Assembly (NCBI GenBank): GCA_964613475.1
Contig: CAZTGV010000006.1
Span: 1 to 50,778, forward strand
Source of the DNA: an uncultured Gemmatimonadota bacterium
GTDB lineage: Bacteria > Gemmatimonadota > Gemmatimonadetes > Palauibacterales > Palauibacteraceae
Direction of reading: 5' to 3'
Length of the DNA: 50,778 nucleotides
The stretch's first letter is position 1. The number at the start of each line of letters is the position of its first letter. Both the position numbers and the translations under genes were made by a program. The notes beneath the pieces were generated by a model, which saw nothing but the letters and a program-made list of their open reading frames with translations, had not been told where the DNA came from and ran no database searches. Shown piece after piece: positions 837 to 10,907 of this stretch.

Positions 837-2919
837 GCCTCGTAGGAAGACGATCACTGACGGTACGGACCGTTCGGGCGCCCACGCCCTCATCGTCTCG
901 AACGGCCGCTCGGGTAAGATCGTGACACCTGCCCGCCACATCGGCTCACCGGCATCGCCCGTCCTCCGGGCGCAGCGGCTCGGGTCGGCGGCGCTGCTCC
1001 TCCTCGCAGTGGCGCCGCTCCTCGCGCCGGCGGCGCTCTCTGCCCTCCACGCGCAGACCGTCCGCGGCACGGTGAGCGATCCGGACTCGGCGGAGCCGCT
1101 GTGGGGCGCCGTGGTCCTTTTGCTCGAGGGCCCGGCGGGCGAGACCCGGGCGGCGGGGACGATCACGGACGAGGGAGGCCGGTACCTGATCCGGGTGCCG
1201 GAGCCGGGCGTGTACCGGTTGCGGGCGCAGCGGATCGGCTTTCGCAGCATCACCACGGAGCCGTTCGCGATCGCCCCGGACGAAGCGGTGCACCGCGCTC
1301 TGAGGGCGCCCGTGCAGGCGGTGCCGGTCGAGGAGATCCAGGTCGTCGGTGAAACCCGGTGCCGCCGGATCGTCGAGGGGGCGGCAGCGGCCTATCGCCT
1401 GTGGGAGGAAGCCCGGAAGGCGCTCGTCGCCACCGTGATCACGGCGGAGATGGACCCCTACTGGTTCGACGCGGCCCTCTGGGAGCGACGCCTACACCCC
1501 CGCAGCCTGCGCGTGCGGGAGGAAGAGCTCCGGACGATCGGGGGGCGGGGTCGTCGTCCATTCCGCAGCATCCCGGCCCGGCGGCTGGCCGCCGGCGGCT
1601 GGGTGCAGGAGACGGACGAGGGGACGATGTACTACGGCCCGGACGCGCGGCTGCTGCTCTCCCAGTCCTTCATGGACGATCACTGCTTCTACGCCCGTGA
1701 GGGCGAGGAACCGGGTTCCGTCGGGCTGGGGTTCGAGCCGATGCCGGGGCGCGACCTGCCGGAGATCGCCGGGACGCTGTGGCTCGACGCGACGTCGGCC
1801 GAGCTTCGGTACCTCGAGTACCGGTACGTGAATCTCGATCTGCCCGTTCGCTCCGACGCGATCGGGGGCGAGGTCGCCTTCGACCGGCTCCCGGACGGGG
1901 GTTGGATCGTCCGCCGCTGGTGGATCCGGATGCCGCAGATCACGCTGGAGCGCGTGCGATCCAGCGTCCCCGGCCGGATCAGGCCCCGCGACCGTCCCGT
2001 CCTCTCGGCGCTCAAGGAGGACGGGGGCGAGATTCGCGCCGTCCGCCGGGAGGACGGGACGCTGGTCCGCGACTACGGCGGTCCAGCCCGCCCGGTGGAC
2101 GCGGCGGACGCCGCTCCGGACGCTCCGGAGCAGCCGACCCCCGGCGCGGACGCCGACGAAGCGGAGGGGAAGGACCAAGAGGCTTCGAGGATGGCGTCTC
2201 CGAGCGCGCGGATCGTCGGCCGGGTCGTGGACGACGGGTCCGGCCGACCGGTCGCGTCGGCCCGGGTGTCGCTCGTCGGGACAGCGCTGGAGACGTTCAC
2301 GGACGAGGGAGGCCGCTTCGCCTTCGCGGTCCCCGCGGCCGGCCCGGCGACACTGCGCGTGGATCACATCGGTTACGGAACTCGGTCGGCGGCCCTGGAG
2401 GTTCCGGCGGGCGGGGCGATCGCCGTCACCTTCCGCGTGGCGGTCGATGCGGTGCCGGTCGAGCCGATCTCGGTCACCATCCTGGCGGAGCGCCGCCGCC
2501 GCGACCTGGCACGGGTGGGCTTCTACAATCGACGGGCTCGCGGCCGCGGCGTCTTCATCACGCGGGAGGAGATCGAGGCGCTGCGACCGATCCGGGTGAC
2601 CGACGTGCTCCGGCGGGTTCCGGGGCTCGAGCTGATCCCGAACCCGGAAGCCGGCAACTATCGGATCCGCGTCCGGGCGGCGCCGGCCTCTCTGCTGGAC
2701 TTCGACTGTCCGATCCGGATCTACCTCGACGGGGCGCTGCTGAGCACGGGCGCGCCCCCGGACGACCCGAGCCCGGGCTGGCCGCTGGACGCGATGGTCC
2801 GCATCGAGAACGTGGCCGGCGTGGAGGTCTACACGCGCCCGTCCCAGATTCCCGCGCGCTTCCGGGCCTCCAAGAACGCGCGCTGCGGGGTGATCGCCGT
2901 GTGGACGCGGGAGCGTTGA
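808..2919 (+). CDS. Secreted protein: carboxypeptidase-regulatory-like domain, unknown beta-rich domain, second carboxypeptidase-regulatory-like domain and TonB-plug-like domain; true start probably near 922
   Basis: Signal peptide ending ALHA-Q; VRGTVSD..PLWGAVV..TDEGGRY and IVGRVVD..PVASARV..TDEGGRF repeats; C-terminal GFYNRRARGRGVFITREEIE..DVLRRVPG..YLDG..GVEVY..CGVIAVWTR plug-like segment. Confidence 0.8.
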   Translation: MKGTVRSYHRPRRKTITDGTDRSGAHALIVSNGRSGKIVTPARHIGSPASPVLRAQRLGSAALLLLAVAPLLAPAALSALHAQTVRGTVSDPDSAEPLWGAVVLLLEGPAGETRAAGTITDEGGRYLIRVPEPGVYRLRAQRIGFRSITTEPFAIAPDEAVHRALRAPVQAVPVEEIQVVGETRCRRIVEGAAAAYRLWEEARKALVATVITAEMDPYWFDAALWERRLHPRSLRVREEELRTIGGRGRRPFRSIPARRLAAGGWVQETDEGTMYYGPDARLLLSQSFMDDHCFYAREGEEPGSVGLGFEPMPGRDLPEIAGTLWLDATSAELRYLEYRYVNLDLPVRSDAIGGEVAFDRLPDGGWIVRRWWIRMPQITLERVRSSVPGRIRPRDRPVLSALKEDGGEIRAVRREDGTLVRDYGGPARPVDAADAAPDAPEQPTPGADADEAEGKDQEASRMASPSARIVGRVVDDGSGRPVASARVSLVGTALETFTDEGGRFAFAVPAAGPATLRVDHIGYGTRSAALEVPAGGAIAVTFRVAVDAVPVEPISVTILAERRRRDLARVGFYNRRARGRGVFITREEIEALRPIRVTDVLRRVPGLELIPNPEAGNYRIRVRAAPASLLDFDCPIRIYLDGALLSTGAPPDDPSPGWPLDAMVRIENVAGVEVYTRPSQIPARFRASKNARCGVIAVWTRER

Positions 2920-4100
2920 GGCGCTGGGCGACGCTGCCGCTCCTCCTCGCGGTCGCCTGCTCGCCACCCCCGTCCGGACCCTGCGATCCGGCACCGGCCT
3001 CCACTCCGGTGCTGCGCGTGTCGGGTCCCGGCGCCTGGGAGGCGGGCGGAGTTGTCCCGGGCTGGCGCGAGCTGTGGCGCGTGGGCGGGACGCGCGACGG
3101 AGAGGAGCTGGTCTTTCCGGTCTTCCCCGCCGTTTCCGCGGATGGGTGGCTCGCCATCCCGGACTTCGCGTTGGGCGAGGTGGCCGTGGTGTCGCCCGAG
3201 GGGCGCTGGCAGGGCAACTGGACCCCGCGGGGGGACGGGCCGGGCGAGGTGCGCCGCCCGATCGCCGCGGCGTGGGACGCGGAGGGCCGGCTCCGCGCCT
3301 TCGACCTGGAGGGCTCCCGGATCGTGTCCGTCCGCACGGACGGGCCGGACGGGCCGGAGCTGCCGTTGGCGACCTCGTTCACCGGTCCGGCGCTCGCCTC
3401 CGGCACCCTGTCTTGGGCCGGCCTGGCGGCGGACGGCACGGCGTTCCTGCTGGCCGAGCTGCCGCCGGCCGAGGGAGAGCGGGCAGGCCATGCGGCCGGG
3501 GCGGACCGAGCCGGTGGCGACGGGGCGAGATCGGCTGCGCGAATGGGCCTTCTCCGCCTGCCGCCGGCGGCCGCGGAGCCGGAGACGCTGGCGGTCGTCG
3601 AAATCGCTCCCGTCCTCGCTCCGGAGTGGCCGCTGCCGGCGCCGCCGCTCGCTCCGGCCGTCGGCGGGTCCGGATGGGCCGCCGTGGGCCGCCGAGGCGC
3701 CGACGCGTGGCTGGAGATCCACGGGTCCCGCGGCACGCCCGAGCTCCGGATCTGCCTCGATCGGGCGTCGCGGTCGCGAGCGAGGTGGTGGAGGTCCGGG
3801 GCGCGGCTGCCGGCGCGTTCGATCGTCCGGGTGCTGATCGGGGCCGGCGGCCGCATCTGGGTGGAGCGGAGCGTGGGAGGCGACGTCACCGCCGCGGACG
3901 CGCTGCTCGGGATTCCCGGGGGCGAATACGACGTGCTCGGGCCCGAGGGCGCCTACCTGGGACGCGTACGCGCCCCGCCCGGGGCGCGCCTGCAGGCGAT
4001 GGCGGACGACACCGTGTGGGCCTTCGAGACCGGCCCGCTGGACGAGACGTGGGTGGTCGCCTACCGGCTGGAGCGGAGCGGCGCGGCGTCGAGGAGGTGA
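2916..4100 (+). CDS. 6-bladed beta-propeller lipoprotein
   Basis: TTG overlaps upstream stop (TTGA); lipobox LAVAC; GDGPGEVRRP, GRIWVER and YDVLGPEGAYLGRV motifs typical of these propellers; C-terminal part of ORF 1779..4100. Confidence 0.75.
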   Translation: MRRWATLPLLLAVACSPPPSGPCDPAPASTPVLRVSGPGAWEAGGVVPGWRELWRVGGTRDGEELVFPVFPAVSADGWLAIPDFALGEVAVVSPEGRWQGNWTPRGDGPGEVRRPIAAAWDAEGRLRAFDLEGSRIVSVRTDGPDGPELPLATSFTGPALASGTLSWAGLAADGTAFLLAELPPAEGERAGHAAGADRAGGDGARSAARMGLLRLPPAAAEPETLAVVEIAPVLAPEWPLPAPPLAPAVGGSGWAAVGRRGADAWLEIHGSRGTPELRICLDRASRSRARWWRSGARLPARSIVRVLIGAGGRIWVERSVGGDVTAADALLGIPGGEYDVLGPEGAYLGRVRAPPGARLQAMADDTVWAFETGPLDETWVVAYRLERSGAASRR

Positions 4101-4231: not shown

Positions 4232-5551
4232 TCACGGGACCAGCGACACGTGATACCCGACCACGACGACCCGGCCGTCGGCGTTCCGCGCCAGGACGAC
4301 CCGTTCCCGGGCGACCGTCACGCGATCGCGACCGGCCGCCGGACGGGAGAAGACCGTCCAGTACGTTCTGGTGGCGTATCCGTCCGGCGCGACCCGCCGC
4401 GACTCGCGATCCAGGTAACCGGGCATGTGGCGCCGCGACATCGGTCCGCCGAGCAGGTCTCGCAGCGCTCGAATCGTGTCCCGCCAGGTCTCCGGGGTGA
4501 ACCGGGCGCGAAGCTCGGCGCCGGCCGCCGCGAAGGCTTCGTCGTGGCGGTCGTCATCCAGGAGCCGCAGCCACTCACCGGCCGTGAGGTCGGCAGACCG
4601 AAACGGCCGCAGTTTCGTCGGCGGGCGCCCGTCCGCTCCGCGCCGCGGAGGGTCGATCCCGAGGCCGGCCTCCCGGGGCGGCCCTTCGCCCTCGCAGCCT
4701 TCGGGCGCGAGGGGTGGGCGACCCTCCCGCACGCCGTCCGCGATGAACCGGCGCAGCTCGCAGAAGAAGACGTGCGGCCGGTTGTACCACGGACTGTGTC
4801 CGGCGCCCTCGATCACGCGCCGCTCGGCCCGGGACAACGTGCTCCAGAGCGGACCCGCGTCCGTTCGCGGCCAGACCTCGAAGGAGCCCTGGAGCAGCAG
4901 CGTCGGCGTCCCCAGGGAGCGGAGCTCGTCAAGCTCGGGAAGGCTGCCCAAGCTCGCGATCGTGGAGAAGAGCGCCCGTCGACAGAGTCGCACGCGGTTG
5001 GAGTACGTGGGGTCGACCCCGTGCTCGTGCGGATCCACGCCAGCGCCCCAGCGGGTCGTGTCCGCGTCATGCGCCGCGACCGCGTTCGCCCACTTGCGCA
5101 GGTTCTCGAAGGAGGGCACCCCGCTGAGCACGAGGCCGGCCACGCGCTCCGGATGCGCGCGGGCGTAGAGCAACGCCAGCACGGAACCCCACGAGACGCC
5201 CGCCAGGTACACCGGGCGGTCGGGGCTGACCTCCGCGAGGAGTCCGTGCAGGTCGGCCACGTGGTCCTCGGCGCGGTAGGAGTCCGCCGGGTCGCTCCGG
5301 CCGCAGCCGCGCTGGTCGTAGTACACGAGCCTGTGGTCGGCGGCCAGCGCGTCCCACTCCGGCCGCAAGTAGTCGTGACTCACCCCGGGACCTCCGTGGA
5401 GCACCACGACGGTGGGGCCCTCCCCGAGCTCTCGAAAAGCGAGCCTCGGAGCGTTCCCGACGTGCCGCACGGGACTGGCCGATTCTCCGCACGCACCGGC
5501 TCCGCACGCGACGAGAACCAGCAGCGAGGCCACGGGGCGGGCGGCTCGCAT
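4232..5551 (-). CDS. Alpha/beta hydrolase (prolyl aminopeptidase-like) lipoprotein fused to a C-terminal DUF4019-like domain
   Basis: Lipobox LVAC; HGGPG oxyanion motif, YDQRGCGRS, GVSWG nucleophile, GAGHSPW His; C-terminal WLRLLD..W..R..LG..ERV..VGYHV resembles DUF4019. Confidence 0.8.
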   Translation of the reverse strand: MRAARPVASLLVLVACGAGACGESASPVRHVGNAPRLAFRELGEGPTVVVLHGGPGVSHDYLRPEWDALAADHRLVYYDQRGCGRSDPADSYRAEDHVADLHGLLAEVSPDRPVYLAGVSWGSVLALLYARAHPERVAGLVLSGVPSFENLRKWANAVAAHDADTTRWGAGVDPHEHGVDPTYSNRVRLCRRALFSTIASLGSLPELDELRSLGTPTLLLQGSFEVWPRTDAGPLWSTLSRAERRVIEGAGHSPWYNRPHVFFCELRRFIADGVREGRPPLAPEGCEGEGPPREAGLGIDPPRRGADGRPPTKLRPFRSADLTAGEWLRLLDDDRHDEAFAAAGAELRARFTPETWRDTIRALRDLLGGPMSRRHMPGYLDRESRRVAPDGYATRTYWTVFSRPAAGRDRVTVARERVVLARNADGRVVVVGYHVSLVP

Positions 5552-5651
5552 CGGCCCACCTCGAGCCGCTCGACGATGGATGGCCGGGCAGGACAAGCGG
5601 AAGCTCCCCCCTCTGCGCCGGCCGTTGCAGCCTCTGTCTGCGCCGGCGGTC

Positions 5652-5708
5652 TGAAGGTAATATTTCACGTCTTAGCGACATCTACTACCCGGAAAGACGA
5701 GCGTCCGC
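5652..5708. promoter_or_regulatory. Divergent promoter region between hydrolase and ECF sigma
   Basis: Locally AT-rich stretch (GGTAATATTTCACGTCTTAG) between divergent starts in a very GC-rich background; exact elements not resolved. Confidence 0.4.
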
Positions 5709-6299
5709 ATGCGGAGTTCGGAGAAGAGCGGCGCCGGAGCGGAACGGCGGGGACTCGGGGACGCGCGGACCGCCGAACCGGACGCCGCCACGCTGGCGCG
5801 CGCCGCTCGCGGGGACTCCGGCGCGATCCGGGCGCTGCACGACCGCTATGTCGAATCGCTCTACGAGGTGGCGTTCCGGCTCACGCAGAGCTCGGCCGAT
5901 GCCCGCGACGTCGTGCAGGAGGTCTTCGTCGGGCTGCCGGAGGCGCTTCCGAGCTTCGAGGGGCGCGGCAGCTTCGGCGGGTGGCTTCGGAAGATCGCGG
6001 TGCGCGCCAGCCTGATGAAGCTCCGGCGTCGTCGCCGCAGGCGCGAAGTCTCGCTGGCGTATCTGAGGGGGCGGCTGCCGTTCGATGATGCGTCCGACGC
6101 GGTGCTGGACCGGCTCGCGGTGGAACGGGCGGTGGCGGCGCTCCCGCCGGAGATGCGGGCCGTCGTCCTGCTCAAGGAGGTGGAGGGCTATTCGCACCGG
6201 GAGATCGGCCGCTTGCTGGGGATTTCCGAGGGGGCCTCGGCCGTCCGGCTTCACCGTGCCCGCAAGGTCCTGCGGCGGGTCCTGGCGGAGGCCCGTTAG
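5709..6299 (+). CDS. ECF RNA polymerase sigma-70 factor
   Basis: Region 2 DARDVVQEVF..SFGGWLRKIA; region 4 LPPEMRAVVLLKEVEGYSHREIGRLLGISEGASAVRLHRAR. Confidence 0.95.
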   Translation: MRSSEKSGAGAERRGLGDARTAEPDAATLARAARGDSGAIRALHDRYVESLYEVAFRLTQSSADARDVVQEVFVGLPEALPSFEGRGSFGGWLRKIAVRASLMKLRRRRRRREVSLAYLRGRLPFDDASDAVLDRLAVERAVAALPPEMRAVVLLKEVEGYSHREIGRLLGISEGASAVRLHRARKVLRRVLAEAR

Positions 6300-6365
6300 C
6301 GCCGAGCCGCGGGTCCTCCGAGTCGCCGGACAGCGGCCCGCGGCCGCGTCCGCGGAGATCCGTCG

Positions 6366-8885
6366 ATGAGTCGGCTCCGGCATCCGGGACGCCGCGGGTT
6401 GGAGCGGCTGGCGGACGGGGAGTGCGCGCCCGCCGAGGCCCGCCGGATCCGCGCCCACCTGGCCGAGTGCCCAGCGTGCCGCGCCGAGCTGGGGTGGCTC
6501 CGGGAGCTCGGTCGCGCGCTGCGGGACATCCCCGCCCCCCGCCCGCCTGAGGGCACGCTCGAGGCCGCCCTGGCGCGCCGCGAGCGGGGCGAGCGGCGCA
6601 TCCTGCCGGTCTCCGATCCCGCGCCGCGCCGGCGTCCTTCGCGCGTGGCGCTCGCCGTGGCCGGCTCCCTGGTGGCGCTCGCGGGCGCGGCCGCCCTGGT
6701 CGTCCTGACCGGTCGGGAGGCGGCGGCCGGAGCGAGCGAGCTCCGCCTGCCGGCGGAGGCGCTCTCGGCCGCGCGTCCGGTCACGGCCGAGTTCCGGGCC
6801 GCCTCCGCGCTCGCCGGCGAGACACGCCTCCGGCTCCGCGGCCGCTACCGCGCCGCCGGCGACGCCCCCCCGCGCGTCCACCTGGGCCGCCCTATCGACG
6901 CGGAGCTCGCCCGGGAAGGGCCGGGCCGCTTCCGCGGCTCGTTGAGGCTGCCGCCGGGCGCCGTCTACGCCGCGTTCTCGCTCGAGGACCTCGACGGCGA
7001 CGACGTGGATGCGAACGGAGGGCGATTCTGGGAGCTCCTGGAGCGGGACGAGGCGGGGCAGCCCACCTTCCGGGCGCTGCAGGAGCGGATGTGGGCGATG
7101 AGCCTGATCCGGTGGGAGCTGGCCCTGGAGACGGCGGTGGAGGCGACGACCCTCTATCCGGACCGCATCGACGGATGGTTCCAGCGCCTGTTCTACGAGG
7201 GCTTGCTCAAGGATCGCGCGGGCAGGGCGCGCCTGCTCGCCGAGCACGCCGAGCGCTTCGCGGCCTTCGAGCGCCAGGTGGCGGGCGCCTCCGCGCCGAC
7301 TGTCGACGAGCTGGCGGCGCTGGTGCGCTACGCGCGCAGCCTGGGGGATGCGGAGGCGATCGGCCGCTGGACCGAGCGTCTGGAAGCGGTCGCGCCGGCA
7401 CATCGGCTGGTCGTCCAGGAGCGGGTTGGCGAGATCGGACGCGCGCACCGGGACGATCCGGCCGCCGGGCTCGAGCGATTGGAGGCGGTGTGGGAGCGCG
7501 CGGGGCCGGCGGACGAGACGCTGTTTCCGCAAGCGTTCGAGGCGGCCCTGGCGCTCGGCGACGCGCGGGTGACGCTCGCCTGGGCCGACCGGATCGATCG
7601 GTACGTGCCCCGGTGGTCGCCGGGCGTGGCGCTGCGCCTCGCGGAGCGCCCCACGCTGCGCGCGGAGGGGATGGCTCGACTCCGACGCGAGCTCCGGCGA
7701 CTGGAATGGGACGGCCCGGATGACCGGCCGCTCGATCTCGGTCGGGCGGAGCACCGGGCGGAAGCGCGGGAGGAGAGCGCCCCGCTCCTGGCGGCCCTGG
7801 GACGCGCCCTCCTGGCCGAAGGGGACAGCGCCGCGGCCGCCGACACGCTCGCGCTGGCGGCCGAGCGCACCTGGGACCCCGCCCTGTTCCGGGAGCTCGC
7901 GGCCGTGCGCGCGGCGGCCGGCGATGCCGAGGCCGCGGTCCGACTGCGGGCGCTCGCCGCCGCCGATCCGCTGAGCGAAGCCGGAGAGCGGGCCGCGCTC
8001 CGACTGGGGCCGGGACCCTCGATCGGGACGGAGGCGTGGCGGAATCGGCTGGCCGAGGCCCGTCTGGAGCTTCAGCGCCGGGCGCGGAGCCGATCGGTCT
8101 CGCGGCCCGTCCCCGAAGGCGTCCGAGTGATGGACGGGGCGGGGGAGGAGCGCCCGCTCCTGGACCTCCTGGGCGGCCGGCCGACGCTCCTCGCCTACTG
8201 GATGCACGTGCCGACCGTCGCCCATCGAGACGGGGCCCGGCTGTCCGCGCTCTCGGGGCGGCTTCGCGACGCGGGCACCCGGGCGGTGGCGGTCGTCGGC
8301 CGGGAACGCTCGCCGGAGCTGGACGCGTTCGCCCGCGACGACGTGACCGGCGTGGTCGTGGCTTTCGACGACCACGCGCAAGCGGGCGCCTCTCTCGAGC
8401 TCTGGGGACGGACCCGCTACCTGGTCATCGACGGGAACGGGCGGATCCGCTTCCGCTTCCGCGAGCACGAGCTGGATCGAGCCCTTCGCCACCTTCTCCT
8501 GCTGGCGGAGGGTGCTCCGACCCTGTCCTCCGACGCGACGGGTCCCGTGCGCGGGCCCGCCGATGTGGAGGGAGCGACCGGCATCGCGACCGACCATTTC
8601 GACATGGGAGGGACCGATGCGATGCAAGCGACGCTGGACGCGGGTCACGTGCCTCGTGGCGACCTTGGCGCTGCTTCCGTTGGGGGTGGCATCCAGTGGG
8701 GACGTGGGGTGGAAGGACGCGTGCGGGGCCTCCGGGAGCTGCATCCCGGAAGCGGGATCGGCGTGTACGGTGGATGGACACGTCACGTACAACGCACGCC
8801 CGTATCCGCTGTAGACACGGGTGAAGAACCGGCGGGGCGGTCGCCCGGTGGGCGCGCCGCCTCCGCAAGGCTGATCGACAGCTAG
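6366..8885 (+). CDS. Zinc-finger (zf-HC2) anti-sigma factor with TM helix, large extracytoplasmic TPR-like region and thioredoxin-like (TlpA-like) domain lacking CxxC
   Basis: HLAECPAC motif; TM VALAVAGSLVALAGAAALVVL; helical repeats; ..PTLLAYW..YLVIDGNGRIRFR redoxin-like fold; the last ~120 aa look non-coding-like and overlap a peptide gene. Confidence 0.82.
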   Translation: MSRLRHPGRRGLERLADGECAPAEARRIRAHLAECPACRAELGWLRELGRALRDIPAPRPPEGTLEAALARRERGERRILPVSDPAPRRRPSRVALAVAGSLVALAGAAALVVLTGREAAAGASELRLPAEALSAARPVTAEFRAASALAGETRLRLRGRYRAAGDAPPRVHLGRPIDAELAREGPGRFRGSLRLPPGAVYAAFSLEDLDGDDVDANGGRFWELLERDEAGQPTFRALQERMWAMSLIRWELALETAVEATTLYPDRIDGWFQRLFYEGLLKDRAGRARLLAEHAERFAAFERQVAGASAPTVDELAALVRYARSLGDAEAIGRWTERLEAVAPAHRLVVQERVGEIGRAHRDDPAAGLERLEAVWERAGPADETLFPQAFEAALALGDARVTLAWADRIDRYVPRWSPGVALRLAERPTLRAEGMARLRRELRRLEWDGPDDRPLDLGRAEHRAEAREESAPLLAALGRALLAEGDSAAAADTLALAAERTWDPALFRELAAVRAAAGDAEAAVRLRALAAADPLSEAGERAALRLGPGPSIGTEAWRNRLAEARLELQRRARSRSVSRPVPEGVRVMDGAGEERPLLDLLGGRPTLLAYWMHVPTVAHRDGARLSALSGRLRDAGTRAVAVVGRERSPELDAFARDDVTGVVVAFDDHAQAGASLELWGRTRYLVIDGNGRIRFRFREHELDRALRHLLLLAEGAPTLSSDATGPVRGPADVEGATGIATDHFDMGGTDAMQATLDAGHVPRGDLGAASVGGGIQWGRGVEGRVRGLRELHPGSGIGVYGGWTRHVQRTPVSAVDTGEEPAGRSPGGRAASARLIDS
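8617..8814 (+). CDS. 65-aa secreted Cys-containing peptide (nested in +1 frame of the anti-sigma tail)
   Basis: GGAGG at 8607-8611, 5 nt before ATG; basic N-terminus plus hydrophobic core (MRCKRRWTRVTCLVATLALLPLG); mature part DACGASGSCIPEAGSACTVDGHVTYNARPYPL; higher GC3 than the overlapping frame; hairpin after stop. Confidence 0.72.
   Translation: MRCKRRWTRVTCLVATLALLPLGVASSGDVGWKDACGASGSCIPEAGSACTVDGHVTYNARPYPL
8832..8866 (+). terminator. Strong GC hairpin just downstream of the peptide gene (terminator or mRNA stabiliser)
   Basis: GCGG-GGCGG-T-CGCCC GGT GGGCG-CG-CCGCC-T-CCGC pairs into a long stem; no U-tract. Confidence 0.45.
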
Positions 8886-8989
8886 TCGGCCGGGGTCTCA
8901 AGCCTCGGCCCACGGCGCCTCCGGATACGCCGGCGGCCGCCGTCTTCCAGGATCGCGATGCCGGCCCGCCCTCTCCCGCTCGTCGCGAT

Positions 8990-10150
8990 GTGGATCGGGA
9001 GCGATCATTGCCTCGGCAGGATCTGCAGGGGACCGATCAGCGGAGCGCCGCGCGAGCAAGCGCCAACGGGGCGCGGGGCCTCGATCGGCGGACGGCCGTC
9101 CTGGTGCTCGGGGGCCTGCTGCTGCTGGGATTCGCGGCGGTGGAGATGTGGCGGTGGCGCGCCGCCGGACCGGGCTCCCTCTCGCACGAGGGCCTGCCCG
9201 TGCGGCCGCTGGAGGGCAGGGCGCTCGACCTCGGAGATCGCCTCGCCTATCCGGTGGCCATCGTCGTGGTCGGCGAGCGCGTCGTCATCCTGGACGCGCA
9301 CCTGGAGCCGGCTGTCCACCTGATCGAGCCCGACGGAAGGGTCCTCGGCCTCGGCGTGGCCGGCGACGGGCCCGGGGAGTACCGGGCGCCCCGCTCGGTG
9401 GTCGCGGCGCCCGAGGGGGCGGACGCGTTCTGGGTGTACGACATCGTGCTCCGCCGCCTCACGCGGATCGATCCGGCGGCGGCCGCGGCCGCCGGGGACG
9501 AGGTGCCCACGGTGACCCTGCGTTCCGACGCCGTGGTCACCGATCCGGTGTGGCAGGGCCCCGATCGGCTCCTGGCCCTCGGCTACTTCACCGAGGGGCG
9601 GTTCGCCGCGTTCGATGGGGGTGGGGCGATGCGGGAGGCAGTCGGCGCGCTGCCGGAGTCCGATCGTGAGGTCCCGCCGACCGTGCTCCAGCACGCGTGG
9701 CAGGGCCGCATGGAGCCGCGGCCGGGCGGCGGGCGGCTGGCGGTCGGATCGCGGCACGCGGGCCGGCTGGAGATCTTCGCCGCCGACGGGCGGCTCGTGC
9801 GCCGCGCGGAGGCGCCGTTCGAGTTCCTTCCCCGCTATCGGGTCGTGGGCACCGACGGCGAGCCCCGCCTCGGCACCGGCGAGGACCTGCGCTTCGGCTA
9901 CCTGGACGTGAGCGTGACGGGGCAGCGGATCTTCGCGCTCTTCTCGGGCCGCCTGCGGGGCGCCTTCGCGGAGCGGGCGCCGTTCGGGAATCACGTGCAC
10001 GTGTTCGACTGGGAGGGCCGTTTCCTGGAGGCGCTACGGCTGGATGCCGACGCGCTGGCGATCGCGGTCGAGCCGGAGGGGCGCACACTGTACGCCATCG
10101 GGCATCATCCGGTGCCGGCGGCCCGGCGCTACGCGCTGGAGCAGGAGTAG
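8990..10150 (+). CDS. Membrane-anchored TolB-like / BF3164-type 6-bladed beta-propeller
   Basis: N-terminal TM; GDGPGEY, FWVYD, RFGYLDVSVT..IFALFSGR and VHVFDWEGRFL motifs; start uncertain. Confidence 0.82.
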   Translation: MDRERSLPRQDLQGTDQRSAARASANGARGLDRRTAVLVLGGLLLLGFAAVEMWRWRAAGPGSLSHEGLPVRPLEGRALDLGDRLAYPVAIVVVGERVVILDAHLEPAVHLIEPDGRVLGLGVAGDGPGEYRAPRSVVAAPEGADAFWVYDIVLRRLTRIDPAAAAAAGDEVPTVTLRSDAVVTDPVWQGPDRLLALGYFTEGRFAAFDGGGAMREAVGALPESDREVPPTVLQHAWQGRMEPRPGGGRLAVGSRHAGRLEIFAADGRLVRRAEAPFEFLPRYRVVGTDGEPRLGTGEDLRFGYLDVSVTGQRIFALFSGRLRGAFAERAPFGNHVHVFDWEGRFLEALRLDADALAIAVEPEGRTLYAIGHHPVPAARRYALEQE

Positions 10151-10169
10151 CCCCGGCGCTACGCGCTGG
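10122..10169. repeat. 18-bp perfect direct repeat flanking the propeller stop codon
   Basis: CCCGGCGCTACGCGCTGG at 10122-10139 and 10152-10169. Confidence 0.85.
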
Positions 10170-10265
10170 TCGAGCGCCGGGGCCGAAGGCGGGGGTCGAG
10201 CGCCGAGGGGCCGCGTTGGGCCGCGCGCTGGACGGCGCCGCCTCGGGTCCGGTAGCTTTTTCGGC

Positions 10266-10907
10266 ATGCCGCCAGACACGCCGTCCCGACCCGCAGACGG
10301 GCGCCCGACGCGGACGCCGCCGGCGGGCGCGCCGGAACCGGACGCACTGATTCCCCTCCGCACCCTCGACGCGCTCCCGACGAGCTATCGGATCACGCCG
10401 ATCGCCGACCTCATCGCCTATCATCAGCTCGGGGCGCCGCTCGGCGACTACGAGCGGGCGCGTCTCCTGGTCGGGATGTGCATGGATCACCGCACGCAGC
10501 TCCGAATGCCGGAGAACTTCGCCTACGTGCTGCGCTCCGGCGGCGCCAACTTCCACCGGCACGAGTTCAAGATCTCGTTCGCGATCGCGGTGGGCGGGGT
10601 CGAGGCGATCGCGCTGATCGGCCACACGGACTGCGGCATGGTGGGCCTGGGCGATCGGCGCGAGGCGTTCGTCGAGGGGCTCGTGGCGCGGGCCGGCTGG
10701 AGCCGCGAGGAGGCGGAGCGGCACTTCGAACAGCACGCGCCGGCCTTCGAGATCCCGGACGCCGCCGGCTTCGTGCGGGCGGAGGCCGGGCGCCTGCGGG
10801 ACCGTTATCGCGGCGTCGCCGTCTGTCCGTTGCTCTATCGGCTGGGGGACCACCGGCTGTACCTGATCCGGGAGGGGCCGGACCCGGACGTCCCCGGCCG
10901 GGAGTGA
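10266..10907 (+). CDS. Beta-class carbonic anhydrase-like protein
   Basis: Zinc ligands CMDHR (CxDxR) and HTDC (HxxC); RSGGA motif. Confidence 0.85.
   Translation: MPPDTPSRPADGRPTRTPPAGAPEPDALIPLRTLDALPTSYRITPIADLIAYHQLGAPLGDYERARLLVGMCMDHRTQLRMPENFAYVLRSGGANFHRHEFKISFAIAVGGVEAIALIGHTDCGMVGLGDRREAFVEGLVARAGWSREEAERHFEQHAPAFEIPDAAGFVRAEAGRLRDRYRGVAVCPLLYRLGDHRLYLIREGPDPDVPGRE

Follow-up and report, generated by a model that had tools for sequence, protein, structure and literature searches.

What does an ECF sigma factor control when it is encoded together with an anti-sigma factor carrying a 600-aa ectodomain, a 65-aa mini-protein and a six-bladed propeller? ECF sigma/anti-sigma pairs count among the main signalling devices of bacteria, and both their input and their output are mostly unknown. 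As argued below, the source bacterium, a soil member of the Gemmatimonadota, appears to carry a conserved, self-regulating four-gene ECF unit, hereafter called the cassette. On the + strand of the window (the whole 50,778-nucleotide stretch of DNA analysed here), the ORF list and Pfam matches place, all co-oriented, the genes for an ECF (group IV) sigma factor of 196 aa (5709-6299; Sigma70_r2 and Sigma70_r4_2), a single-pass ZAS-type anti-sigma factor in an 839-aa ORF (6366-8885; zf-HC2), a putatively secreted mini-protein of 65 aa (8617-8814; delimited by an 18-member alignment and belonging to no Pfam family) and a TolB-like six-bladed propeller (8990-10150; PF15869), thus confirming the four genes placed by an earlier note on this DNA. 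The genes around them in the window comprise a hydrolase, a carbonic-anhydrase-like ORF and a cyclophilin; a lipoprotein-like ORF further upstream (2868-4100) gave no match in a Pfam search.

The significant sigma-region matches of the 196-aa protein were to regions 2 and 4 alone (Pfam Sigma70_r2, 6.1e-17; Sigma70_r4_2, 6.9e-17), the composition and size (about 200 aa) of an ECF sigma factor, and the NCBIfam model sigma70-ECF (TIGR02937) was matched at 91.6 bits against a cut-off of 42.9; orthologues at 14 loci are 44-56% identical. Just upstream, 25 nt before the sigma ATG, lies a candidate ECF-type promoter (5655-5687, + strand), composed of a -35 element GTAATA (5657-5662) and a -10 element CATCTA (5679-5684) separated by a 16-nt spacer. 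The motif TGTAAGATTT-N11-GGCATCTA was found upstream of the sigma gene in 12 of 15 loci, a clear site being missing in the remaining three (3/15), and we infer from this conservation that it acts as a promoter, which would substantiate the autoregulatory loop suggested earlier. In the source genome (G000), the motif had a single strong match (score of 44.6; next best, 19.6), suggesting that the cassette regulates mainly itself, with the caveat that further sigma targets could be missed in a genome 88.8% complete. Five near-complete genomes of the genus g17 contained 11 matches to the promoter pattern compared to 0 in the reversed control, 7 of the 11 lying beside cassettes and 4 away from them, and ORFs behind extra motif matches returned nothing in a Pfam search. 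The recognisable sigma regulon would be essentially its own operon. No sigma-type promoter was detected upstream of the peptide gene, and a scan of 5400-10600 for sigma-70 promoters and terminators yielded 0 and 0. The four genes are probably co-transcribed, assuming in the orthologues that transcription continues across the gap of 130-330 nt before the peptide gene.

The anti-sigma gene starts 67 nt after the sigma gene, and its product begins with a zf-HC2 domain (aa 15-39; 8.3e-8, 32.6 bits against a Pfam cut-off of 22.2) whose HxxxCxxC motif has H31 and C35 invariant and C38 conserved in 90% or more of the 17 sequences. Membership of the ZAS family suggests that this protein binds and inhibits the sigma factor. 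The AF2 model (pLDDT 85.4, pTM 0.75) predicts, successively along the + strand, a transmembrane helix in a hydrophobic stretch with low-confidence linkers on either side (aa 97-115; 6654-6710), a periplasmic beta-sandwich (aa 125-225; 6738-7040), a TPR-like helical solenoid (aa 235-575, with helices over 235-574; 7068-8090) and a ResA/TlpA/CcmG-like thioredoxin fold devoid of CXXC (aa 587-715; 8124-8510). In Foldseek, the solenoid matched OGT, SPINDLY and designed CTPR superhelices (E of 3e-6 to 2e-5), and the thioredoxin-like fold matched ResA, TlpA, CcmG and Bcp chains with a TM on target of about 0.6-0.8; the AhpC-TSA Pfam match (aa 588-696) was weak, at 16.8 bits below a cut-off of 26. The beta-sandwich is the best-conserved part of the ectodomain between paralogous cassettes (60-62%), and a word-based search gave the ectodomain only 6 relatives among 8000 candidates scored. 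The C-terminal domain shares with ResA, TlpA and CcmG its fold, its membrane tether and its orientation toward the periplasm, but not the catalytic motif: no CXXC occurs at the site in any of 20 aligned sequences, one having CxxS, and the ectodomain is Cys-free in 14 of 20. Without CXXC, and joined to a TPR solenoid and an anti-sigma domain, it can be no more than a pseudo-enzyme, and we read the 600-aa periplasmic part as a protein-binding sensor rather than a redox enzyme.

The anti-sigma frame runs on uninterrupted to 8885 and, therefore, formally overlaps the whole peptide gene, which lies in another frame. The position previously given for the anti-sigma gene stands, but not the full extent of its frame, since conservation ends near aa 716 (8513), homology to the orthologues stopping at aa 697-717, and the tail beyond is unconserved read-through. 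An assembly error at this point was ruled out by an independent metagenome contig spanning 8350-8986 with no indels and by the length of the anti-sigma factors of close relatives (815-840 aa). Could the 65-aa ORF then be a chance frame in 74%-GC DNA, the region being simply the anti-sigma C-terminal tail? The open anti-sigma frame and the many spurious ORFs that high GC yields would speak for it, as would the strain variants in the overlap, whose 7 substitutions favour neither the peptide frame nor that of the tail. This reading is hardly credible and already contradicted by several observations. In most orthologues, the anti-sigma gene stops before the small ORF, and the position, signal sequence and Cys pattern of the latter are kept in 17 other loci plus 20 more. 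Moreover, a strong Shine-Dalgarno sequence, GGGAGGG, precedes the gene (8606-8612, + strand), and inspection by eye shows a GGAGG-like box in most of 18 aligned upstream regions, 5-9 nt ahead of the ATG; dN/dS values are all below 0.5 (0.17, 0.43 and 0.48), and the GC3 signal changes over to the peptide frame around 8560-8780. On these grounds, we take the 65-aa ORF as genuine.

Its product combines a signal-peptide-like segment (aa 1-26), which points to Sec-type export and signal cleavage, with a mature part of about 39 aa in which C36, C42 and C50 are conserved across the 18-member alignment. The family comprises 62 database clusters, all unnamed and from Gemmatimonadota, and searches found no match to Pfam, NCBIfam or a known toxin family. 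As counted from the translation, the mature protein of the window contains more acidic than basic residues. The number of Cys in the family is odd (3 or 5). Reading the first Cys as part of a lipobox would have explained this but was rejected by eye, as charged residues occupy positions -2/-3 and the Cys lies ~12 residues past the hydrophobic core; intermolecular disulfides to the partners were likewise rejected because the propeller and the anti-sigma ectodomains are nearly Cys-free.

Of 20 loci retrieved from related genomes, 14 show the order sigma/anti-sigma/small ORF/propeller, the other 6 consisting of 3 cut by contig ends, 1 with the pair only and 2 with distant propeller paralogues. 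The earlier note had proposed looking for an intervening peptide in homologous loci and would have counted its absence as a refutation, but the peptide is there: a small ORF lies between anti-sigma and propeller in all 14 syntenic loci of related genomes, and in further peptide loci the propeller is directly downstream in 20/20 and the anti-sigma gene present in 16/20. This four-gene arrangement is far beyond chance, and conservation is limited to it, the flanks differing between loci. In the genus g17, whole cassettes are duplicated, each with its own sigma factor, and some genomes contain as many as three or four cassettes; the source genome contains no paralogue of its anti-sigma factor, peptide or propeller at 1e-3. 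Between paralogous cassettes, identity is 40-45% for the thioredoxin-like domain, 45-53% for the TPR solenoid, 39-48% for the peptide and 66-70% for the propeller.

The propeller matches PF15869 (TolB_like; 1e-12, 48.4 bits against a cut-off of 29.2), and AF2 models it with six blades of four strands each (pLDDT 91.5), in agreement with membership of this family. It has no Cys and begins with a hydrophobic helix, either signal or anchor, although its start is uncertain, as one database gene model places it at about aa 39-40 of the ORF. Its relatives form 1822 clusters (50% identity) at E<=1e-3, and no NCBIfam name was found for it. With TolB of the Tol-Pal system, it shares the six-bladed fold, a face predicted to bind a partner polypeptide and the Pfam name; it differs in that its best Foldseek matches among NHL propellers, PAL and YncE are non-enzymatic NHL domains. 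TolB_N was not matched, no tol or pal gene is conserved next to the propeller, and the unconserved flanks hold no Pal/OmpA gene.

Prediction of the complex between the mature mini-protein and the propeller gave ipSAE values of 0.85, 0.90 and 0.90, against 0.02 for the best control. Among 80 solved complexes, 58 attained the ipSAE mark, as did 2 of 110 mismatched pairs, counts that hold roughly here because our own alignments were used, and the score expresses the confidence of the model and is not a measurement. At least 80% of the contacts recur across the runs, and the pLDDT of the partner is a modest 63-67. In the predicted complex, the mini-protein plugs the variable top face of the propeller, its conserved E-x-(D/G)-S-x-C...Y segment touching all six blades, which is favourable to the role of peptide-binding partner earlier attributed to the propeller. 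Variability is higher at the contact residues than over the rest of the propeller (entropy of 2.38 versus 2.02), as expected for a co-diversifying interface, not an active site.

This pair is not confined to the ECF cassette. Under our working definition, which is not Pfam's (a small signal-bearing Cys protein encoded immediately upstream of a TolB_like/DUF5128 propeller), it was found in the window and in 37 other Gemmatimonadota loci. Five genomes with the pair alone contain no full-length anti-sigma orthologue, the one partial match being on another contig, and a stand-alone pair adjoins genes for an aminotransferase and SpoIID; the pair is thus independent of the sigma system. In Bacteroidaceae, NVEALA (PF14055) genes and propeller lipoproteins of the TolB_like (PF15869)/DUF5128 (PF17170) families follow the two-gene order of the cassette, with a 70- to 80-aa protein that has a hydrophobic signal at its N-terminus and Cys in its C-terminal part, then a propeller of 330-400 aa. 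The propellers of the two groups are homologous (25% identity, E of 4e-12), and 21 of 30 ORFs downstream of NVEALA genes match the HMM of the cassette propellers; in L084 (Bacteroidaceae), all three NVEALA genes (3/3) are paired with a propeller. Like the mini-protein, NVEALA occurs in multiple copies, reaching 20 genes in one Bacteroidaceae genome, with tandem arrays of pairs. Sequence homology between the two small proteins was rejected (Pfam, 0 of 18 members at E<=10; hhalign probability of 0.7% against a 16-member NVEALA alignment), NVEALA had no match in the source genome, and an ESM Atlas search linked the mini-protein to an NVEALA cluster with a score of 0.78, which we take as a lead only. 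Around 30 NVEALA loci, no sigma or anti-sigma gene was present out to 1.5 kb, and no NCBIfam names were found for the Bacteroidaceae pairs. Our literature search found no paper on NVEALA, no function for the TolB_like/DUF5128 propeller families and no study of the small-protein/propeller pair in Bacteroidaceae. By gene order and propeller homology, the pairing thus seems to extend, unstudied, to gut Bacteroides relatives. Given the analogous Bacteroidaceae pairs and the pairs without sigma system, the core module would seem to be the pair, with the ECF system as its regulator.

We propose a model, to which we give even chances, of an autonomous, self-regulating ECF cassette in which the mini-protein and the propeller are the functional core and the ECF pair their dedicated regulator. 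A single promoter of ECF architecture upstream of the sigma gene would drive all four genes. In the resting state, the anti-sigma factor would hold the sigma factor through its cytoplasmic HxxxCxxC domain; upon inactivation of the anti-sigma factor, the sigma factor would transcribe essentially its own operon. The output, probably the mini-protein/propeller pair itself, would be more mini-protein and more periplasmic propeller, forming a specific complex. More speculatively, unpaired mini-protein or propeller may be read back by the TPR/pseudo-thioredoxin ectodomain.

Other readings of the same genes were also weighed. In a peptide signalling loop, the mini-protein would be the ligand of the anti-sigma ectodomain and would drive feed-forward autoinduction, with the propeller buffering or presenting it. 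ResA/TlpA folds normally grip Cys-bearing polypeptides, the anti-sigma version having lost the catalytic Cys, TPR solenoids bind peptides, and duplication involves entire cassettes, sigma and anti-sigma factors included. The thioredoxin-like and TPR domains diverge almost as fast as the peptide, unlike the propeller, but this may merely reflect weaker constraint, and the pair exists without this anti-sigma factor in at least five genomes. A precedent is the lantibiotic cluster of Microbispora corallina, in which the pathway-specific ECF sigma/anti-sigma pair MibX/MibW is reported to mediate peptide autoinduction with feed-forward expression (PMC4973701). The cluster resembles the cassette in uniting an ECF sigma/anti-sigma pair with a ribosomal Cys peptide. 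The cassette differs in having no conserved lanthionine synthetase, transporter or LuxR regulator, and the mini-protein has a Sec-type signal, not a leader, in a presumed diderm. The modification enzymes and dedicated exporter expected beside a RiPP or lantibiotic precursor are absent, the four genes alone being conserved. A Sec-exported peptide would stay in the periplasm of a diderm barring further export, making a cell-to-cell signal unlikely, and the presumably periplasmic location of all three ectodomains argues against the freely diffusing, quorum-like signal considered by the earlier note. We regard the signalling loop as unlikely overall.

Alternatively, and with quite a small probability, the genes could encode a toxin/immunity or bacteriocin pair under ECF control, with an antagonistic mini-protein neutralised by the propeller. 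Such a pair would suit the tight and specific predicted complex with its variable interface, the fast evolution of the small partner compared to the conserved large one, the multi-copy cassettes of g17 and the tandem arrays of analogous pairs in Bacteroidaceae, whose small proteins have hypervariable C-termini. However, the cassette has no conserved export, processing or lysis gene, the mature peptide is richer in acidic than in basic residues, periplasmic and dissimilar to known toxin families in our searches, and the small-gene-first order is not diagnostic. The propeller could also be a periplasmic maturation enzyme (a PAL-like lyase or cyclase) modifying the mini-protein: peptidyl-alpha-hydroxyglycine alpha-amidating lyase ranks 8th in Foldseek, the peptide is predicted to enter the central face, which in propeller enzymes houses the active site, and an odd number of Cys could mean a non-disulfide fate for one of them. 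This is very improbable, as the top fold matches are non-enzymatic, the contact residues vary more than the remainder of the propeller does, and the invariant columns (D151, R301, L317, S319 and G320) include no His triad or other metal site.

The autonomous cassette, our preferred reading, can be set beside the canonical pairs of ECF sigma factor and class I ZAS anti-sigma factor. These include RpoE-RseA and SigW-RsiW. The cassette shares with them sigma regions 2 and 4, an adjacent single-TM HxxxCxxC anti-sigma factor with an extracytoplasmic sensor, and, ahead of its own operon, -35/-10 elements with a 16-nt spacing; it differs in its 600-aa ectodomain made of a beta-sandwich, TPR repeats and a Cys-less ResA-like domain, in an operon always including the mini-protein/propeller pair, and in a recognisable regulon that is essentially the operon itself. 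The main text of the 2021 ECF reclassification (PMC7826278) does not contain the words propeller, thioredoxin or Gemmatimon. The earlier statement that no system of such architecture has been characterised is to be qualified in view of MibX/MibW (PMC4973701) and of the Bacteroidaceae small-protein/propeller pairs.

A decidedly doubtful extension would be a private periplasmic circuit, in which the three-Cys mini-protein is a ligand shared by the variable propeller face and the catalytically dead ResA-like/TPR ectodomain, whose thioredoxin fold would have been reused to sense a Cys peptide, the free-versus-bound or redox state of the mini-protein setting sigma activity. If so, genomes containing as many as three or four cassettes would run insulated parallel channels, and the Bacteroidaceae NVEALA/propeller pairs would represent a large unrecognised family of cognate receptor pairs.

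We rate the cassette as a new form of ECF signalling, with an output that seems to come down to two proteins whose mutual binding is predicted. Together with its unusual pseudo-thioredoxin/TPR sensor, this makes it compact enough to be rebuilt in a heterologous host. Our study also offers a first functional handle on three families, namely the Gemmatimonadota mini-protein, the TolB_like/DUF5128 propellers and NVEALA: each small protein probably binds, as a cognate partner, the propeller of the adjacent gene.

The four genes proposed in the earlier note are real and stand at their proposed positions on the + strand, as judged by ORF reading and Pfam. The sigma gene (5709-6299) encodes Sigma70_r2 and r4_2, and the anti-sigma gene (6366-8885) encodes zf-HC2 at aa 15-39 and a weak AhpC-TSA match at aa 588-696, NCBIfam confirming the former as an ECF sigma and the latter as an anti-sigma. 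The propeller gene (8990-10150) matches TolB_like (PF15869) at 48.4 bits against a cut-off of 29.2. The 65-aa ORF between them (8617-8814), here called the mini-protein gene, has no Pfam family, and NCBIfam names neither the mini-protein nor the propeller.

The propeller was used as a query against 61 genomes, namely the window's genome and its relatives, and matched in 23 of them: the window's genome, 20 of the 36 other members of its family, and 2 of 24 from the sister family. Among 20 relatives' loci fetched for synteny, 14 keep the order sigma, anti-sigma, propeller, and all 14 carry a 65- to 79-aa ORF between anti-sigma and propeller, which upholds the intervening peptide. Three further loci consist of the ORF and the propeller (two ended by contig edges, one without sigma genes), and the last three are a contig-end propeller fragment and two distant propeller paralogues without a small ORF. 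Across the phylum, a profile search recovered the small gene from 24 of 401 genomes, including the window's; excluding the latter, it occurs in 19/30 genomes of its own family and in 1/166, 2/93, and 1/4 of three others, and in none of the rest. At 20 new loci, the propeller lies directly downstream in every case and the anti-sigma directly upstream in 16. None of the six flanking ORFs of the window recurs beside the cassette in other loci; the unit is thus exactly four genes. In one genus, genomes hold two to four cassettes, some in tandem, and every cassette has a separate set of sigma, anti-sigma, small gene, and propeller. Duplicates of the whole cassette, with separate sigma genes and similar promoters, are seen at L101 (G155:C3:102500-116500), where they are in tandem, and at L102 to L104 in genome G295; at L103, the anti-sigma and propeller matches are broken into two or three pieces, which suggests a decaying cassette. 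Near-identical DNA is present in soil metagenomes of several studies.

The small ORFs of the 14 syntenic loci share a basic N-terminus followed by a hydrophobic stretch, and their C-terminal half bears Cys. An alignment of 18 members shows three conserved Cys in the motif N-x-x-C, x5-9, C-x-(R)E-x-(D/G)-S-x-C, with an aromatic patch after it. By eye, most aligned upstream regions have a GGAGG-type ribosome-binding site 5 to 9 nt 5' of the ATG, read in the window as GGGAGGG (8606-8612, +). The dN/dS values of three pairs with at least 50% identity are 0.17, 0.43, and 0.48, and a search of 5.8 billion proteins returned 62 clusters matching the profile, all unnamed and, where a taxon is given, all from Gemmatimonadota MAGs. 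Two subfamilies have three or five mature Cys, and a distant relative (L080) has seven, so that the count is always odd. Where the second Cys of a mini-protein is doubled, an additional C-terminal Cys is invariably present, and because of this co-occurrence the two probably pair with each other. A Longimicrobium sp. MAG (L082, oriented 2921-3399) carries tandem mini-protein genes of 74 and 76 aa, with five Cys each, followed by one propeller.

One part of the earlier picture had to be corrected: the anti-sigma ORF runs on to 8885 and thereby takes in the entire small gene, which is read in a different frame. Most anti-sigma orthologues end 5 to 25 codons beyond their last conserved domain, 50 to 330 nt 5' of the small gene. 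A read-through of ~100 to 125 codons is found in the window (8514-8885, +, ~125 codons past the last conserved domain), in L028 among the orthologues, and in three closely related database proteins (60 to 94% identical, 815 to 840 aa), the likeness of the tails being confined to the stretch encoding the small gene's ribosome-binding site. GC3 falls in the anti-sigma frame past ~8500; from ~8560 to 8780, the small gene's frame has the highest GC3. Spanning 8350-8986, an independent contig from another study has 11 substitutions and lacks indels, so the overlap is genuine; with 7 substitutions within it, there is too little variation to tell which of the frames is constrained. Translational interference or coupling between the two genes is possible, because ribosomes terminating on the anti-sigma would cross the small gene's ribosome-binding site. 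In one soil-metagenome strain (run X6, a single low-depth contig), 6 bases are missing at 8521, in frame for the anti-sigma tail and 5' of the small gene.

The motif TGTAAGATTT-N11-GGCATCTA recurs upstream of sigma in 12 of 15 loci, and we read it as an ECF promoter architecture with a -35 GTAAGA, a 16-nt spacer, and a -10 CATCTA. The candidate promoter of the window has GTAATA at 5657-5662 and CATCTA at 5679-5684 (+), 25 nt 5' of the sigma ATG. A weight matrix built from the 12 sites and run over the whole 2.69-Mb assembly (88.8% complete) scored this site at 44.6 and the second best at 19.6. A 15-base pattern, searched with up to one mismatch in five near-complete genomes from the multi-cassette genus, gave 11 matches versus none for the reversed pattern; seven lie beside cassettes, and four precede unrelated small ORFs or nothing recognizable. 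No sigma-type promoter site was found 5' of the small gene. We infer one autoregulated operon whose main target would be itself, in the window's genome perhaps the only one. Extra motif copies were seen just downstream of a propeller (L033, oriented 7228), before an operon with carboxypeptidase-regulatory-like lipoproteins (ORFs by eye) and a paralogous propeller (L040, oriented 2929), and before an 82-aa Cys protein that bears a signal and has no Pfam family (L107, 227-475, in G295).

In the AlphaFold2 model of the anti-sigma (17-sequence alignment, pLDDT 85.4, pTM 0.75), the helical anti-sigma domain spans aa 9-53, the TM helix aa 97-115, and a beta-sandwich aa 125-225. They are followed by a helical solenoid at aa 235-575, which Foldseek relates to TPR superhelices (OGT, SPINDLY, and designed CTPRs), and by an alpha/beta domain (aa 587-715) resembling ResA, TlpA, CcmG, and Bcp at TM ~0.6 to 0.8 on the target. 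Unlike these, the domain has no CXXC: at the catalytic position, none of 20 sequences has a Cys pair and one has CxxS. As modeled, it is thus a thioredoxin fold devoid of redox chemistry, which could plausibly serve to bind a Cys-bearing polypeptide. A word-based protein search scoring 8000 candidates yielded six relatives of the ectodomain, which is entirely Cys-free in 14 of 20 sequences. The propeller ectodomain is likewise Cys-free in nearly all orthologues, and between them the two ectodomains leave the unpaired mini-protein Cys without an obvious partner.

Six blades follow an N-terminal helix in the propeller model (33 sequences, pLDDT 91.5), whose nearest solved folds are NHL domains (Brat, Thin, TRIM2/71), PAL, and YncE (TM ~0.5 to 0.7 on the target). 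With 1822 clusters at E<=1e-3 and 284 at E<=1e-30, the family is large, and its members are lipoproteins in the five-Cys subfamily and in one stand-alone pair. A lipoprotein-like ORF at 2868-4100 (+) has a GDGPGE-type motif recalling propeller blades; Pfam gives no match for it and tblastn no link with the propeller of the cassette, and it might be a very distant propeller. The earlier idea of the propeller as the peptide's partner gained support from the predicted complex of propeller 58-386 with mini-protein 27-65, with ipSAE of 0.85, 0.90, and 0.90 and a best control of 0.02. The runs have at least 80% of contacts in common and a partner pLDDT of at least 63. In calibration, 58 of 80 solved complexes passed the score mark, as did 2 of 110 mismatched pairs; these counts apply only roughly because our own alignments were used. 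Residues 44-49, 51-59, 61-62, and 64 of the mini-protein, including the conserved motif and the aromatic patch, are predicted to contact all six blades, which would place it on the central face of the propeller.

The pair also occurs without the anti-sigma, in four loci of other families and one (L035) of the window's family, one of these pairs adjoining an aminotransferase and a SpoIID gene. None of the five genomes has a full-length anti-sigma orthologue; one has a partial match (aa 4-522) on another contig. Scanning 185,579 species genomes with propeller patterns gave 27 loci, 11 with a short signal-bearing Cys-rich ORF just 5' by a simple heuristic, including Krumholzibacteriia and a Bacteroidaceae MAG. 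The latter (L084, 1479-5906) holds three tandem pairs of an NVEALA gene (PF14055, 29.9 to 36.2 bits, cut-off 27) and a TolB_like or DUF5128 propeller lipoprotein. Within its family, 6 of 26 genomes carry NVEALA genes, as many as 20 in a single genome. At 30 NVEALA loci (L110 to L139), tblastn found a downstream propeller in 13, none in 16, and one cut locus, and an HMM from the Gemmatimonadota propeller alignment matched 21 of the 30 downstream ORFs; the other nine, one from the cut locus, are mostly lipoprotein-like and of similar size. Lipoproteins behind NVEALA genes measure 330 to 400 aa. The N-terminal half of NVEALA proteins is conserved and the Cys-bearing tail hypervariable. Both kinds of pair place a small signal-bearing Cys gene before a homologous propeller; unlike the window's cassette, none of the 30 NVEALA loci has a sigma or anti-sigma within 1.5 kb. 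As NVEALA proteins and mini-proteins have no detectable sequence homology (an Atlas feature match at 0.78 is a lead only), the pairs are analogous in order and architecture and homologous in the large member. The full-text literature search found no mention of NVEALA and no description of its pairing with a lipoprotein or propeller.

ECF/ZAS pairs are textbook regulators. In the model that we propose, the sigma would be held by its ZAS-type anti-sigma until some periplasmic event at the TPR/pseudo-thioredoxin ectodomain freed it; freed sigma would then raise its own operon, and the product that matters would be the specific mini-protein/propeller complex. The best reading makes the mini-protein/propeller pair the core and the ECF pair its regulator, since the pair occurs alone and the anti-sigma does not.

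Four rival explanations were weighed. A chance ORF would draw on the window's GC content of 71 to 80%, at which open frames are abundant; conservation, coding constraint, and genomic position show that the small gene is real. In a substrate/enzyme pair, the propeller would act on the peptide. Its contact residues have a mean column entropy of 2.38 versus 2.02 elsewhere, entropy being lower in 97.8% of random sets of equal size, and none of the five invariant propeller columns suggests a metal centre; a co-diversifying binding interface fits this variability of the modeled contacts better than a conserved active site. The predicted binding would also suit a toxin/immunity pair. An autoinducing ligand would be sensed by the ectodomain, which might instead read the propeller or the mini-protein/propeller complex. 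Between paralogous cassettes of one genome, identities are 66 to 70% for the propeller, 60 to 62% for the beta-sandwich, 53 to 60% for sigma, 45 to 53% for TPR, 40 to 45% for Trx, and 39 to 48% for the mini-protein, values compatible with TPR and Trx tracking the mini-protein and equally so with weaker constraint. In the microbisporicin system, as in the cassette, an ECF/anti-sigma pair accompanies a ribosomal Cys peptide, over which it is described as exerting feed-forward control (PMC4973701).

The main text of the ECF reclassification (PMC7826278), in its consulted portion, has no propeller, thioredoxin, or Gemmatimonadetes, and the supplementary group descriptions may contain a matching group. 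The records listed by full-text search held nothing relevant on an ECF sigma/anti-sigma with a propeller in Gemmatimonadetes and no function for DUF5128, BF3164, or PF15869, the last being merely a TolB marker in the excerpt of one preprint. Of the earlier interpretation, there stand a real peptide, an apparently autoregulated cassette, and a propeller predicted to bind the peptide. Altogether, we rate the cassette as ECF signalling built around a widespread, uncharacterized mini-protein/propeller module.
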